From: Candidatus Micrarchaeota archaeon UBA95
GTDB taxonomy: Archaea; Micrarchaeota; Micrarchaeia; Norongarragalinales; Norongarragalinaceae
NCBI GenBank assembly: GCA_002499405.1
Contig: DALH01000018.1
Span: forward strand, 1-39,013
DNA length: 39,013 nucleotides
Direction: 5' to 3'
Below, in pieces: positions 14,202 to 30,205 of this stretch. Below the pieces are notes generated by a model, which made no database searches, was not told where the DNA came from, and saw nothing but the letters and a program-made list of their open reading frames with translations. The first letter of the stretch is position 1, and every line of letters starts with the position of its first letter. The position numbers and the translations under genes were made by a program.

Positions 14202-14272
14202 AGCAGGGCGGGGGAGTCGAACCCCCTTATCTCGCTCTGCAGGCGAGCACGTGGCCGTTCCGTCAGCCCTGC
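14202..14272 (-). tRNA. tRNA-Cys (GCA)
   Basis: Manual fold: acceptor GCAGGGC/GCCCTGC, anticodon stem CTCGC/GCGAG with loop CTGCAGA (anticodon GCA), T arm GGGGG-TTCGACT-CCCCC, discriminator U73. No encoded CCA. Confidence 0.85.
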
Positions 14273-14276
14273 GGCG

Positions 14277-15065
14277 CTAAACGTTTTGGTCTGGTTTATT
14301 GAAAAAGTTTCGCACCCGGACGCGCAACGAATTGAATTCCAGGAGGCCCCGATAAACCGCGTCCTTCTTGAAGGCGAGCAGGTATGCGGCTGCGAACAAC
14401 GCACCATAGGCGTGGACGAATAAATCCGTGTGCGTTGCGTGCTCGCGTTCCTGTCCCTCCGCCACCACGCGCACCTTTTCCTCTGTTTTCTCCAGGCCTT
14501 GGCGGGCCGCTTCGGCTTCCTCGGTCAGACCCGCGTTCTCAAACGCGGTTATTTGCTCCTTCAACGCGCTGGTCTCGCTTGCAAAGCTTTCCGCCTGCTG
14601 CTGATTCATAGCGGTCACCAACGGGAAAATCGCGGCGTAGGTTATGAGCGGCGCGGCAATCAAAAGGGGAATCGCCCGGGAAGGGTTGAGCATCATCGCC
14701 GCCGCCATCACGCCACTCAGCCCCGCGCTGGCTCCAATGAGAAAGGAGGATGGATTTATCAATGAAAACATTGCGCTGGCGAAAAAGCCCGAGAACAAAA
14801 AGAGCGAGATGGTGTCAAGCCACGACAGGGACTGCTCCAACAGGAAGATAAAGAGCAACAAAGGCAGCAGGTTGCCCAACAAATGGTATGCCCCAACGTG
14901 ATAAAACATGTGGGAGAACAGCGCTCCGGCTTGGTTGAAAGAGAATGCATTTTCGGAGATGACTTCGTTGGGGAGGTAAAGCGTCCCTTGGGACTGAAAG
15001 AAGTAGGGGGCGAGTATTGCCGCCGCCAAGACGAGGGTTGCAATCGGGAAACGCATGAAGAACAA
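14277..15065 (-). CDS. Rhomboid family intramembrane serine protease
   Basis: 262 aa, polytopic. HVGAYHLLGN (HxxxN) and GASAGLSG (GxSxG catalytic Ser) motifs; C-terminal coiled-coil-like extension. Confidence 0.85.
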   Translation of the reverse strand: MFFMRFPIATLVLAAAILAPYFFQSQGTLYLPNEVISENAFSFNQAGALFSHMFYHVGAYHLLGNLLPLLLFIFLLEQSLSWLDTISLFLFSGFFASAMFSLINPSSFLIGASAGLSGVMAAAMMLNPSRAIPLLIAAPLITYAAIFPLVTAMNQQQAESFASETSALKEQITAFENAGLTEEAEAARQGLEKTEEKVRVVAEGQEREHATHTDLFVHAYGALFAAAYLLAFKKDAVYRGLLEFNSLRVRVRNFFNKPDQNV

Positions 15066-15247
15066 ACGGCGTAAAACAATTTATACGGTTAAGTATTGGG
15101 AGCAGAGATGAAAGAGAATTAGGCCGGCTCTTTGGGAGCCAGCAAGGCGACCATTTCAACCCACCTATACAGAATACGCATTAAGGAATCCCTGCAAGTA
15201 AATAAAAGGATTACGAACTACCAGAACCGAGTAATTCCGCTTTTAAG

Positions 15248-15434
15248 CGGGCCCAGAGGGACGGTCGCAACCTTTCTTTTTTCATCAATGCCTAGCAAAC
15301 GCTTCCGCGTTTGCAGGCACGCGAACCACAACGGTTCGCCGTGTTTTTTCTTTCACGAAAGAAAAAAGATTGTTTCGAACCCTCGACACCTCGGTTAAGA
15401 GCCGAGTGCTCTGACCAGGCTGAGCTATGGGCCC
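15248..15434 (-). tRNA. tRNA-Lys (CUU) interrupted by a 112-nt intron in the T-loop (between positions 59 and 60)
   Basis: 5' exon (15434..15374): GGGCCCA TA GCTC AGCCTGGTCA GAGC A CTCGG CTCTTAA CCGAG GTGTC GAGGG TTCGAA. 3' exon (15261..15248): T CCCTC TGGGCCC G. The 3' exon completes the T stem (GAGGG/CCCTC) and a perfect 7-bp acceptor stem. No T-stem complement lies directly after the T-loop. Confidence 0.85.
15262..15373 (-). other. tRNA-Lys intron (non-canonical position), highly structured
   Basis: Three hairpins on the minus strand: TTTTTTCTTTC-GT-GAAAGAAAAAA, GCGAACC-GTTGT-GGTTCGC, and GCAAACGC-GGAA-GCGTTTGC. The boundary is ambiguous by 1 nt (59/60 versus 60/61). Confidence 0.75.
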
Positions 15435-15471
15435 GCGGAAGGTTTTTGGACTTGCGTGATTTAAGATTGTT

Positions 15472-15987
15472 ATGGTTGTAGCCGTTGCGCGGTTGGGCCA
15501 CCGCTCCAAGCGCGACAAGAGGTTGAGTACGCATTGCGCATTGATTGCGCGCGCCTTTGGAGCCGAGCGAATGGTTTACTTCGGTGAAAAGGACGCCGTA
15601 TTGGAGGCCAGCGTTCGGGGCGTTGTTTCGCGTTGGGGCGGCTCGTTTGAAATCGAGCACGGCAACTCGTGGAAACGCCTCTTCAACGAAGAAAAAAAAC
15701 GGGGAACAAAAATAGTTCACCTGACCATGTACGGCTTGCCCTACAAGCGCGTGTTGCAATCGGTCAAGGGGAAGCGCCTGCTCGTGGTCATCGGTTCCAA
15801 AAAGGTTCCACGCGGGATTTACGGGGAAGCGAACTACAACTGTTCAATCACCAACCAACCGCACTCCGAAGCCGGGGCGCTCGCCGTGTTTCTGGAAGGC
15901 CTGGGTTTGCAGTCGCGCTTCAGGGGGGCGAAATTGAGGTTGAAACCCTCTGCAAGAGGCAAACGTTTCACGACTAAATATAAATAG
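15472..15987 (+). CDS. trm56: tRNA (cytidine56-2'-O)-methyltransferase aTrm56 (SPOUT)
   Basis: 171 aa. VARLGHRSKRDKRLSTHCALIARAFGA...VSRWGGSFEIE...IVHLTMYG is typical of the archaeal Trm56 family. Confidence 0.85.
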   Translation: MVVAVARLGHRSKRDKRLSTHCALIARAFGAERMVYFGEKDAVLEASVRGVVSRWGGSFEIEHGNSWKRLFNEEKKRGTKIVHLTMYGLPYKRVLQSVKGKRLLVVIGSKKVPRGIYGEANYNCSITNQPHSEAGALAVFLEGLGLQSRFRGAKLRLKPSARGKRFTTKYK

Positions 15988-16540: not shown

Positions 16541-16569
16541 ACGCGAAAACGCAAATTCTTCCTGTTTTT

Positions 16570-16644
16570 AGCGGGGTAGGGTAGCCAGGAGTGCCCGCTG
16601 GGCTCATAACCCGGAGATCGGAGGTTCAAATCCTCTCCCCGCTA
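16570..16644 (+). tRNA. Initiator tRNA-Met (CAU)
   Basis: AGCGGGG TA GGGT AGCCAGGAGT GCCC G CTGGG CTCATAA CCCGG AGATC GGAGG TTCAAAT CCTCT CCCCGCT A. A1:U72 pair and three G:C pairs at the base of the anticodon stem are archaeal initiator features. Confidence 0.92.
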
Positions 16645-16974
16645 TTTGTAGGGGCTGTGGCTCCTCTTGTAAGAATAGTGCCCGTATTTGGGCTTCTCCG
16701 GTTCGGCTGGTTCTTCTTCCTCCTCTACGGACGTCGAAGACGAGACCAGAATGATTTTTTCGGCGGCTTTAACGCTCTTGTAGAGAATCGTTTTCTCGCG
16801 GAAGATTTTTCGCGCCTCATCCTTGCTCGTAGCCCTGATGGGTTCCAATGTCAAGCGAACGACCTCGCCTTTCTGCAGATCTATGATGACATCGTAGACC
16901 TTGCCCAACTGGTCCGCGGAATCCGTGTAAATGTCCATGCCTATGAGCTGTGAAACCTTCAACAATTCAATCAA
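16642..16974 (-). CDS. PRC-barrel domain protein with acidic C-terminal tail
   Basis: 110 aa. LIGMDIYTDSADQLGKVYDVIIDLQKGEVV is PRC-barrel-like; SVEEEEEPAEPEKP tail. 3-nt overlap with the tRNA 3' end. Confidence 0.7.
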   Translation of the reverse strand: MIELLKVSQLIGMDIYTDSADQLGKVYDVIIDLQKGEVVRLTLEPIRATSKDEARKIFREKTILYKSVKAAEKIILVSSSTSVEEEEEPAEPEKPKYGHYSYKRSHSPYK

Positions 16975-26179: not shown

Positions 26180-26281
26180 CTAGCATTCGTGTTTTTCCAC
26201 GAACTCGAATTCCTTTTCAGAGGGAGGTGTGCGCTCTTCTTTCACGGGTTCTTTTATGCTGACGATTCGCGGGCGCTTCAT
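26180..26281 (-). CDS. Small ORF (33 aa) translationally coupled to the E2 gene (weak)
   Basis: MKRPRIVSIKEPVKEERTPPSEKEFEFVEKHEC. Its ATG overlaps the E2 stop as ATGA (GGGTTATGAAG). Confidence 0.3.
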   Translation of the reverse strand: MKRPRIVSIKEPVKEERTPPSEKEFEFVEKHEC

Positions 26282-26736
26282 AACCCACTCACGATGCGCG
26301 GCTTTCCGGGTTCGGGTTTGTTGCCTTGGTTTTCGTAGTATGCGGCGGCCTCCTTGTTCAACGGGTCCGAGGGGTTCGGGTTTTTTAGCAGGTATTGCAG
26401 GGCGTTGACGACGTTGGTTATTGTTTGGTTTTCCGCCCAGTCGTTCACGAGTTGGATGCATACCTTGCCGTCTTCTTCGCGTATGTTGGGGTGGAATATC
26501 GGGGTGAGCCACGTGATTTCAACGCCGCCGGGGTAGGGATAGTTGCGGTTCAACTCTATTTTGACGGCGTGCTTGTTTTTTTCGAGTACGTGGTCGCCTT
26601 CGCGGTAGAGGCCCGGGCCGTTCAAGCTCAGCACGTATTCCGTGTAATCCGAGTTTACCTCGAATTTGGTTCCAGAGTTCCGCATTTGCTGGTATTCGTT
26701 TTCGAGGCGGCGCTTCCAGATCTGCGGGGGGAGCAT
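26278..26736 (-). CDS. Ubiquitin-conjugating enzyme E2 (UBC fold)
   Basis: 152 aa. YPYPGGVEITWLTPIFHPNIREEDGKVCIQLVNDW: HPN motif followed by the catalytic Cys and conserved Trp, then the PNPSDPLN loop. The ATG directly abuts the stop of the Ub-like gene. Confidence 0.9.
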   Translation of the reverse strand: MLPPQIWKRRLENEYQQMRNSGTKFEVNSDYTEYVLSLNGPGLYREGDHVLEKNKHAVKIELNRNYPYPGGVEITWLTPIFHPNIREEDGKVCIQLVNDWAENQTITNVVNALQYLLKNPNPSDPLNKEAAAYYENQGNKPEPGKPRIVSGL

Positions 26737-26979
26737 TCAGCCACCCGTAGGGTCGGGAATCAACAACAGTTCTTGGTTCTCCTTGATTTCGGCTTCTTCC
26801 AGAGTCATGTCGGGGTTTAGTATTTTGTTTTCCTTGGTTGCCAGAACGAAGCGGTCCTTCAAGTGAAGGTTTTCGGCGAGTACTTCCAGCACCGAGGAAA
26901 CCGAGTAGTCCCCTTCAACCGCCAGTATGATTTCCTTTCCAGACGTGGTTTGGGTTACCTTGATGTTGAATTCGCTCAT
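26737..26979 (-). CDS. Ubiquitin-like beta-grasp protein ending in Gly-Gly
   Basis: 80 aa. MSEFNIKVTQTTSGKEIILAVEG...ELLLIPDPTGG then stop. Size, alternating beta-strand pattern and the C-terminal GG are typical of Ub/Ubl modifiers. Confidence 0.85.
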   Translation of the reverse strand: MSEFNIKVTQTTSGKEIILAVEGDYSVSSVLEVLAENLHLKDRFVLATKENKILNPDMTLEEAEIKENQELLLIPDPTGG

Positions 26980-29452: not shown

Positions 29453-30199
29453 TTAATGCACGGGGCAGTTCGCCCTTTTTGGAACGTCGTAAACGATTGT
29501 TTCCTGTTTCAAGCCGTCAAAGAAAACGTATTTTCCTTCAAGGCAGTCGCGGCCGTGAACCATTTTCACGAACTCGTTGGCCTGCATCGCGGCAATGATT
29601 GACGTCGTGGTGGCGAGCGCCGGCATCTTTGGGTCCAAGAAGTCAAGGACTTCGCCCACGCACGAATATTTTTTCCACATCTTCTTGTAATCCGCCTTGC
29701 TCATGGTGCATTCCAGGCACGAGGAAGGCGAGCGCACGACCTGCACCTTGCCGTGGAAGCCCGTAGTCCCTCCGTCAATGAGCGGAACGCGGCCGTAGCA
29801 GTAAGCGTTCAAGTGGAGGCGCGCGGCCTGGTTATCCAAGCCCGAGAAAGCGTAATCAAACCGGTCGTAAAACCAGTCGTCAAGGAATTCCAGGCGCTTG
29901 ACCACGGCCTTGATGCGTGCGTTCTCGTCCATGACGCGCGCTTTTTCCGCGAGCACTTCCGCCTTGAGTTTTCCAACGTCCGAGGAGTTGAAGAACACGC
30001 AGCGGTTGAGGTTCGCCTCGATTATGGAATCGTAGTCCACGAGCGTCAAGTCGCGAACCCCTTTTTGGACGAGCAACTTGATTAATTCGTTTCCGAGCGC
30101 GCCCGCTCCAACCACGAGACACCGCGCTTTGGATACCGCGTCCTGGTCCCATCCGTTGATGCGTTTCTGCCTGTCGAAGCGGTCGTCGTCCGCGCGCAT
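29453..30199 (-). CDS. Ubiquitin-activating E1-like enzyme (minimal ThiF/MoeB-type adenylation domain)
   Basis: 248 aa from ATG 30199 (the track's TTG at 30205 is less likely). RFDRQKRINGW...CLVVGAGALGNE (GxGxxG), VDYDSIIEANLNRCVFF, GLDNQAARLHLN, PLIDGGTTGFHGKVQVV, CLEC motif. Confidence 0.88.
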   Translation of the reverse strand: MRADDDRFDRQKRINGWDQDAVSKARCLVVGAGALGNELIKLLVQKGVRDLTLVDYDSIIEANLNRCVFFNSSDVGKLKAEVLAEKARVMDENARIKAVVKRLEFLDDWFYDRFDYAFSGLDNQAARLHLNAYCYGRVPLIDGGTTGFHGKVQVVRSPSSCLECTMSKADYKKMWKKYSCVGEVLDFLDPKMPALATTTSIIAAMQANEFVKMVHGRDCLEGKYVFFDGLKQETIVYDVPKRANCPVH

Positions 30200-30205
30200 A
30201 ATCAA

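Follow-up and report, generated by a model that had tools for sequence, protein, structure and literature searches.

A probable tRNA-Lys(CUU) gene with a 112-nt T-loop intron at position 59/60 in a Micrarchaeota archaeon

Archaeal tRNA introns have been reviewed as 11–129 nt long, with medians of 12–25 nt, and position 59/60 is among their listed insertion sites (PMC4090602). The non-canonical introns of Thermoproteales and other Crenarchaeota (Sugahara 2008; Fujishima 2010; reviewed in PMC4090602), the positions of which include 59/60, are spliced by protein via bulge-helix-bulge motifs or relaxed variants of them and have been linked to broad-specificity endonucleases; their hosts have (αβ)2 enzymes, often several introns per gene, and signs of intron transposition between tRNAs. 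DPANN lineages have ε2, (αβ)2 or loop-bearing α4 endonucleases, which have been associated with disrupted tRNA genes (PMC5829648). The closest described case is Candidatus Micrarchaeum acidiphilum ARMAN-2. Its pre-tRNA-Cys(GCA) is interrupted at 59/60 by an intron of 13 nt; the motif is relaxed, and cleavage of this intron by the three-unit ε2 endonuclease was obtained in vitro (PMC3239211). Its tRNA-Pro(GGG) carries one intron at 53/54 and another at 59/60 (Fujishima et al. 2011, PMC3239211).

The window examined here, by which the whole stretch of 39,013 nt of DNA is meant, carries on its minus strand (15434→15248) a tRNA-Lys(CUU) gene in which an insert of 112 nt separates a 5′ exon of 61 nt from a 3′ exon of 14 nt. 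The original prediction, in which the strand was unstated, had described a tRNA-Lys(CUU) with a 112-nt insert at 59/60, and the sequence features of such a gene are all present at 15248–15434. Based on the exon geometry, the bulge-helix-bulge-like fold, the orthologues with and without insert, and the covariation over 33 genes, we regard the insert as a 59/60 intron and consider it very probable that the locus, intron included, is a functional tRNA-Lys(CUU) gene; its host is a Micrarchaeota (DPANN) archaeon. It shares with the ARMAN-2 59/60 introns the phylum-level lineage, the insertion point in the T-loop and a relaxed motif with the T stem as outer helix, but differs from them in the tRNA concerned, in its length (112 nt vs 13 nt), in its 11-bp inner helix and three internal hairpins, and in that its splicing is predicted from sequence. 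Like the crenarchaeal introns it would be protein-spliced via a bulge-helix-bulge or relaxed variant, but it is a single intron for which no paralogous copy was detected and its host is a DPANN archaeon. Where the original prediction pointed mainly to Thermoproteales, the apt precedent is instead the DPANN/Micrarchaeota one, the ARMAN-2 59/60 intron cleaved in vitro (PMC3239211). The intron had rightly been called unusually long, 112 nt being near the top of the reviewed range of 11–129 nt (PMC4090602). As T-loop introns at 59/60 in DPANN archaea were already known, the window intron is a new and unusually long, otherwise ordinary case.

The 5′ exon (15374..15434, minus strand; tRNA positions 1–59) reads GGGCCCA-TA-GCTC-AGCCTGGTCA-GAGC-A-CTCGG-CTCTTAA-CCGAG-GTGTC-GAGGG-TTCGAA from 15434 to 15374 in DNA letters and GGGCCCA UA GCUC AGCCUGGUCA GAGC A CUCGG CUCUUAA CCGAG GUGUC GAGGG UUCGAA as RNA, and comprises the acceptor 5′ strand, the D arm, the anticodon arm (loop CUCUUAA), the variable loop, the T-stem 5′ strand GAGGG and the T-loop part UUCGAA. 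The 3′ exon (15248..15261, minus strand) reads T-CCCTC-TGGGCCC-G from 15261 to 15248 (RNA U CCCUC UGGGCCC G) and supplies U60, the T-stem 3′ strand CCCUC, the acceptor 3′ strand UGGGCCC and the discriminator G; CCA is absent from the gene-encoded 3′ end. Between tRNA positions 59 and 60 lies the 112-nt intron (15262..15373, minus strand), delimited by the sequence, by orthologue comparison and by the junction alignment. ARAGORN run on the window did not call the unspliced gene, its only calls being tRNA-Cys (14202–14272, minus) and tRNA-Met (16569–16645, plus), and the Rfam tRNA model matched the unspliced gene at 15428–15367 with 29.5 bits, over model positions 7–64 only and with the T stem broken. 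When the exons were joined in silico, ARAGORN returned tRNA-Lys(ctt) of 75 nt with perfect acceptor, D, anticodon and T stems, that is, removal of the insert restores a canonical cloverleaf as in a protein-spliced intron. The restoration of the T-loop, the T stem and the 7-bp acceptor by the distal 3′ exon, as originally described, was thereby confirmed, and the 12-nt 3′ strand CCCTCTGGGCCC occurs only once in the 39-kb window at up to one mismatch (0.22 occurrences expected, both strands), this sole copy lying on the same strand as its partner and 112 nt downstream of it.

Upstream of the gene a TATA-like box CTTAAAT (15459..15465, minus strand; −31 to −25 from tRNA position 1) is conserved in L004, L007 and L073 and is presumed from its sequence to be the archaeal promoter of the tRNA-Lys gene. 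In L002 and L003, variants at least 99.5% identical to the window, a patch of about 20 nt is replaced relative to window positions ~15435–15455, immediately 5′ of the tRNA and before aTrm56. The neighbours of the tRNA-Lys gene in the window are archaeal (Cdc48, TFIIE-alpha, aTrm56, Nre), and the aTrm56 protein encoded there maps to contig MNVI01000026.1 of NCBI assembly GCA_001871605.1, a Micrarchaeota MAG. Open reading frames overlapping the tRNA-Lys gene (e.g., 15292–15759, minus, 155 aa) were without Pfam match and were regarded as spurious.

The splice junctions were analysed using the geometry rule of a 4-bp helix between two 3-nt bulges (PMC4090602), with the cut placed after the second bulge base as inferred from the canonical 37/38 geometry. 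Under this rule a 59/60 intron requires U54–G57 to be paired with intron bases −6 to −3, the 5′ bulge to be A58, A59 and intron base 1, and the 3′ bulge to be intron bases −2 and −1 together with U60. In the window the 5′ strand of the central helix H (T-loop U54 U55 C56 G57; 15376..15379, minus strand) and the 5′ bulge (A58 A59 / intron A1, cut after A59; 15375–15373, minus strand) were assigned by hand from the geometry and checked by alignment and constrained fold, while the 3′ strand CGAC (intron bases −6 to −3; 15264..15267, minus strand) and the 3′ splice site (C G / U60; 15263–15261, minus strand) were taken from the junction alignment and the constrained fold. Three of the four central pairs are formed (G57–C, C56–G and U55–A), the fourth being a U54·C mismatch; most relatives have CGAA at intron bases −6 to −3, which gives all four pairs. 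The outer helix is the T stem (5 bp), and the inner helix h′ is formed by CAAUCUUUUUU (intron bases 2–12; 15362..15372, minus strand; inverted repeat I1), which makes 11 contiguous pairs with the AAAAGAAAGGUUG region (intron bases −17 to −7; 15268..15278, minus strand; from fold and junction alignment).

A strict hBHBh′ motif has two 3-nt bulges with a 4-bp helix between them and a helix of 2 bp or more on either side. The junction motif of the window departs from this: its 5′ bulge is a regular one of 3 nt, whereas the U54·C mismatch in the central helix places the 3′ splice site in a 1×4 internal loop instead of a clean 3-nt bulge. It does belong to the relaxed hBH / HBh′ class, in which two helices flank each splice site, the helices here being the T stem (5 bp), the central helix (3 bp) and the inner helix (11 bp). 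The motif-constrained cloverleaf folds at −82.9 kcal/mol, the best cloverleaf at −84.0 kcal/mol and the unconstrained minimum at −85.5 kcal/mol, and RNAfold slightly favours pairing of C56–G57 with the last two intron bases. Since the constrained fold is within 1.1 kcal/mol of the best cloverleaf and the helix contains a mismatch, the motif is considered accessible, and relaxed rather than strict. A bulge-helix-bulge-like motif at the junctions, on which the original prediction had let its case depend, is thus present at 59/60 in relaxed form, and the accompanying claim that an endonuclease able to cut relaxed motifs is required is plausible because the central helix has three of four pairs and the 3′ site lies in the 1×4 loop. 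No splicing endonuclease was detected in the window by Pfam search of 40 of its open reading frames, nor did tblastn with the EndA of M. jannaschii match the window or any of the loci. The ARMAN-2 ε2 query, most of which was rebuilt from PDB 4fz2 alignments, had more than 1400 relatives, of which the best 120 were all about 368–406 aa long, and those among them that were named by source were mostly labelled Micrarchaeota; no relative was linked to the genome of the window.

The tRNA-Lys gene lies between a rhomboid gene and aTrm56, and the order rhomboid, tRNA-Lys, then divergent aTrm56 and TFIIE-alpha is kept in relatives; both the closest aTrm56 relatives and the genome records with the same locus are labelled Micrarchaeota. 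Syntenic relatives have inserts of different length at exactly the phosphodiester of the window: 109 nt after TTCGAA in L007 (aTrm56 84% identical to that of the window), 79 nt after TTCGAA in L004 / L043 (77%), and 34 nt with a perfect 4-bp central helix in L009 / L045 (58%). The orthologues in L008 (aTrm56 73% identical) and L073 (77%) have no insert and encode exactly the T-loop predicted for the spliced product, TTCGAAT. The intron of L002, L003 and L058 is identical to that of the window, which is uninformative because all three are at least 99.5% identical to it throughout. One further candidate relative sought through Trm56, P0009, was not syntenic.

Both intron-less orthologues (L008:403–796, minus; L073:1–173, minus) have intron-like sequence right after the tRNA 3′ end. 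The L073 sequence runs E2-CT-GAACC...GTTCATCCCC and matches the L007/L004 intron at its start and in its 3′ part, and that of L008 runs E2-CTCACG-TTTTTTCTTTC.AAAAAGAAAAAAC and matches the intron hairpin of the window (z = 8.2 relative to shuffles). From these sequences it would seem that the 3′ exon, together with a few trailer bases, was copied to the 5′ splice site and that the old intron was left stranded downstream; the trailing sequence may be a footprint of intron loss.

For the wider comparison a family was assembled from the syntenic loci and from matches to the exon pattern in one genome-collection scan and one metagenome scan. It comprises 33 distinct tRNA-Lys(CUU) genes with an insert of 20–164 nt at 59/60; a few shorter inserts (11–14 nt) turned up as well and were not included in the pair count. 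Its members come from Micrarchaeota (the window, L004, L007, L009, L013, L027 and L028; 24–112 nt), Aenigmatarchaeota (L014, L022 and L023; 35–80 nt), Woesearchaeota (L040 and L046; 76–91 nt), Methanomassiliicoccales / Thermoplasmata (13 loci; 20–23 nt, with a perfect 3-4-3 motif), a Methanosarcinales MAG (L054; 30 nt), and unclassified archaea and metagenome contigs (L015, L032, L035, L036, L055, L059, L060 and L061; up to 164 nt). Two inserts, those of L035 (135 nt) and L060 (164 nt), are longer than the reviewed range of 11–129 nt. Pairs were counted on a fixed-register alignment of the junctions of the 33 genes, in which 99.4% of the pairs of the T stem, 93.9% of those of the central helix and, in strict register, 67% of those of the inner helix are formed; since the search pattern prescribed the exon side of the central helix, only its intron side was free to vary. 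Double-sided (compensatory) changes occur at all six pairs of the inner helix h′ that were tested. The covariation score is 0.265, compared with 0.128 ± 0.015 for shuffled alignments (0/500 shuffles reach 0.265), and every pairing measure drops when the partners are slid by 1–3 columns. Position and junction helices are thus conserved in orthologues while the intron sequence varies.

The Methanomassiliicoccales/Thermoplasmata loci, all from MAGs (L016, L019, L021, L024, L030, L034, L039, L041, L042, L047, L050, L052 and L056), share with the window the tRNA, the position and the pairing of UUCG with intron CGAA, but their introns of 20–23 nt have a perfect 3-4-3 motif and a single hairpin of 5–6 bp, whereas the intron of the window has five times that length and a mismatched central helix. 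An older generalisation confines the introns of Euryarchaeota to 37/38, and these 59/60 introns run against it; our literature search returned no description of a tRNA-Lys(CUU) 59/60 intron in Methanomassiliicoccales. In eight DPANN tRNA-Lys(CUU) loci (L020, L022, L023, L027, L028, L035, L046 and L061) no acceptor 5′ strand is present at the usual spacing ahead of the anticodon arm, which suggests extra introns in the 5′ half of these genes, and the 112-nt T-loop intron of L028 is internally duplicated.

The window intron as a whole folds as a rod (−48.1 kcal/mol; z = −6.2 relative to shuffles), in which the 11-bp inner helix is extended by 6 further pairs and followed by an A-rich loop and two hairpins. 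The three hairpins of 11, 7 and 8 bp that had been read from the sequence were recovered by an inverted-repeat search, with arms of 11, 8 and 7 nt that are each 100% complementary. These are a local 11-bp hairpin UUUUUUCUUUC/GAAAGAAAAAA (15344..15367, minus strand; inverted repeat I3), which contains a T6 run and for which the minimum-energy fold shows alternative pairing, an internal 7-bp hairpin GCGAACC/GGUUCGC (15321..15339, minus strand; inverted repeat I7), and an internal hairpin with an 8-bp core GCAAACGC/GCGUUUGC that is lengthened by CCU/AGG to about 14 bp (15289..15320, minus strand; inverted repeat I4 and fold). The pyrimidine tract has two pairing options, with the adjacent purine tract (the 11-bp hairpin) or with the distal purine tract (extending h′ and the rod), and both options are also found in L007 and L004. 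The module order of rod, A-rich tract and two hairpins is common to the window and L007, with compensatory changes in the hairpins: the L007 counterpart of the 7-bp hairpin is GCGAAAC/GUUUCGC (C–G to A–U), and the hairpin collinear with that at 15289..15320 is CCCGCGAAAC/GUUUCGCUGGG, the extension being CCU/AGG in the window and CCC/GGG in L007.

One reading, which we consider unlikely, is that the expanded rod-shaped intron is kept for a reason, either as a stable circular RNA with a role of its own or as a cis lock of U55–G57 that acts as a maturation checkpoint. Under the cis lock, T-loop modification, including Cm56 formation by aTrm56, would wait for splicing. If the intron is kept for either reason, selection for it would have left its mark in the collinear compensatory hairpins of the window and L007, as well as in the recurrence of this tRNA-Lys(CUU) T-loop intron among DPANN phyla and in Methanomassiliicoccales. 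Taken by itself, the idea that the intron hosts an independent functional RNA, freed by splicing and perhaps persisting as a stable circle in the manner of the tRNA-Trp intron with its C/D guide, is quite improbable. The stability of the fold, the collinear modules with their compensatory substitutions, a length far above the usual 12–25 nt, and a 5′-proximal pyrimidine/purine hairpin that recurs among long introns of several DPANN phyla speak for it. Against it, the interior is the least conserved and fastest-evolving part of the locus (60% and 54% identity). In the comparison with L007, the closest orthologue, the intron reaches 60% identity, against at least 90% in the flanks (97% and 100% for the exons, 90% for the 40 nt upstream), and the 3′ exon of the window is unchanged in L004 and L007. 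Some orthologues, moreover, have an intron of 34 nt or none, the sequence is single-copy within the window and the loci then collected, and Rfam scans of 15050–15480 (E-value up to 10) and of the whole window (E-value up to 1) matched only tRNA, the snoRNA models giving noise only on the intron (E = 6).

The tRNA-Trp intron of Haloferax and other Euryarchaeota is likewise long (65–105 nt), structured and released by the endonuclease that would also act on the window intron; its position, however, is 37/38, and it carries C, D′, C′ and D boxes together with guides against its own exons. A box C/D guide RNA of this type was rejected, as the 112 nt of the window intron contain one UGAUGA with no CUGA D box, no second box pair and no conserved boxes, the UGAUGA being missing from L007 and L004. 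The independent function originally suggested for the intron is therefore unsupported. A self-splicing group I or group II intron was also rejected, with Rfam giving no match at E-values up to 10 and 112 nt being too short, as was a repeated or mobile (MITE-like) element: a blastn-short search with three introns detected no further copies in the window or in the loci then collected, and the junctions show no direct repeat.

A dead gene, in which the tRNA-Lys would be disrupted by an inserted element and remain unspliced while another gene supplies tRNA-Lys(CUU), is very unlikely. The imperfect motif and the T6 run within the insert could be read in this way, and, the tRNA search spanning the 39-kb window, a second tRNA-Lys(CUU) gene is possible elsewhere in the genome. 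Yet the two exons are undamaged and complement each other perfectly, in contrast to the fast-diverging insert; across 33 genes the insert has kept its position and, with covariation, its junction helices; relatives retain the promoter-like box; and the insert is not a repeated element. DPANN genomes are also small and their tRNAs are normally single-copy, which counts against the dead-gene reading as well. That the intron is real but lies one position off has next to no likelihood, for although three junctions leave a 7-nt T-loop by sequence alone (the alternatives being UUCGAGU or UUCGAAA), only 59/60 combines a 3-nt bulge with a central helix and an uninterrupted inner helix, the registers 58/59 and 60/61 being rejected because the central helix fails to form in either (0–1 central pairs, by hand), and 59/60 fits all relatives, many with a perfect 3-4-3 motif, with position 60 being U in the intron-less orthologues.

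For a functional intron-containing tRNA-Lys(CUU) gene, maturation can be proposed as follows. The gene would be transcribed from the TATA-like promoter about 28 nt upstream and the tRNA body would fold within the precursor, where U55–G57 of the T-loop would pair with intron bases −4 to −6 and intron bases 2–12 with −7 to −17, creating the relaxed bulge-helix-bulge with the T stem as outer helix. An archaeal splicing endonuclease, presumably encoded in this genome and of the ε2 three-unit type or another broad-specificity form, would cut after A59 and before U60, and an RtcB-type ligase would join the exons at the predicted junction UUCGAA/UCCCUC (i.e., ...GGGUUCGAA/UCCCUC...) into a 75-nt tRNA with the T-loop UUCGAAU, to which CCA would be added afterwards. 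The 112-nt rod-shaped intron would be released, probably as a circle with an only putative role. T6 runs are readable as terminators by archaeal RNA polymerase, and the run inside the intron could cause some premature termination.

The tRNA-Lys intron implies no new type of biology. Standard tRNA finders miss the gene, so that the genome would seem to be without tRNA-Lys(CUU), and incomplete tRNA sets are often reported for DPANN genomes because finders miss intron-split genes. The comparative series, which covers several DPANN phyla and Methanomassiliicoccales with inserts of 11 to 164 nt and includes two intron-less relatives keeping intron-like sequence just past the gene, may be useful for the study of tRNA intron gain and loss.

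Several neighbouring elements were recorded along with the tRNA-Lys gene. The divergent aTrm56 gene (15472–15987, plus) starts 37 nt from the tRNA-Lys 5′ end, and its product makes Cm56 in the T-loop. As C56 is paired in the splice motif, Cm56 would presumably be formed after splicing; the adjacency of the two genes is also found in intron-less relatives and may therefore be a coincidence. Just 3′ of the tRNA lies a 7-bp hairpin GAAUUAC...GUAGUUC (15215–15237, minus), which is kept by covariation (GCGCUAC/GUAGUGC in L004, GAAUUAC/GUGGUUC in L008) and could serve 3′ processing or termination. A 67-nt element (15116–15182, minus), located between a TATA-like CCTTTTATTT (15200–15209) and the start of the rhomboid gene, has hardly changed in any of the syntenic relatives, even at an aTrm56 identity of 58%; it had no Rfam match and was folded by RNAalifold into three hairpins, the third with compensatory changes, and may represent either a small RNA of unknown kind or a structured 5′ leader. 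Farther away in the window, at 26278–26979 (minus) and 29453–30205 (minus), there is a eukaryote-like ubiquitin cassette, made up of a ubiquitin-like protein of 80 aa with GG at its end, an E2 (Pfam UQ_con, E = 1e-20) and, close by, a ThiF/E1-like protein.
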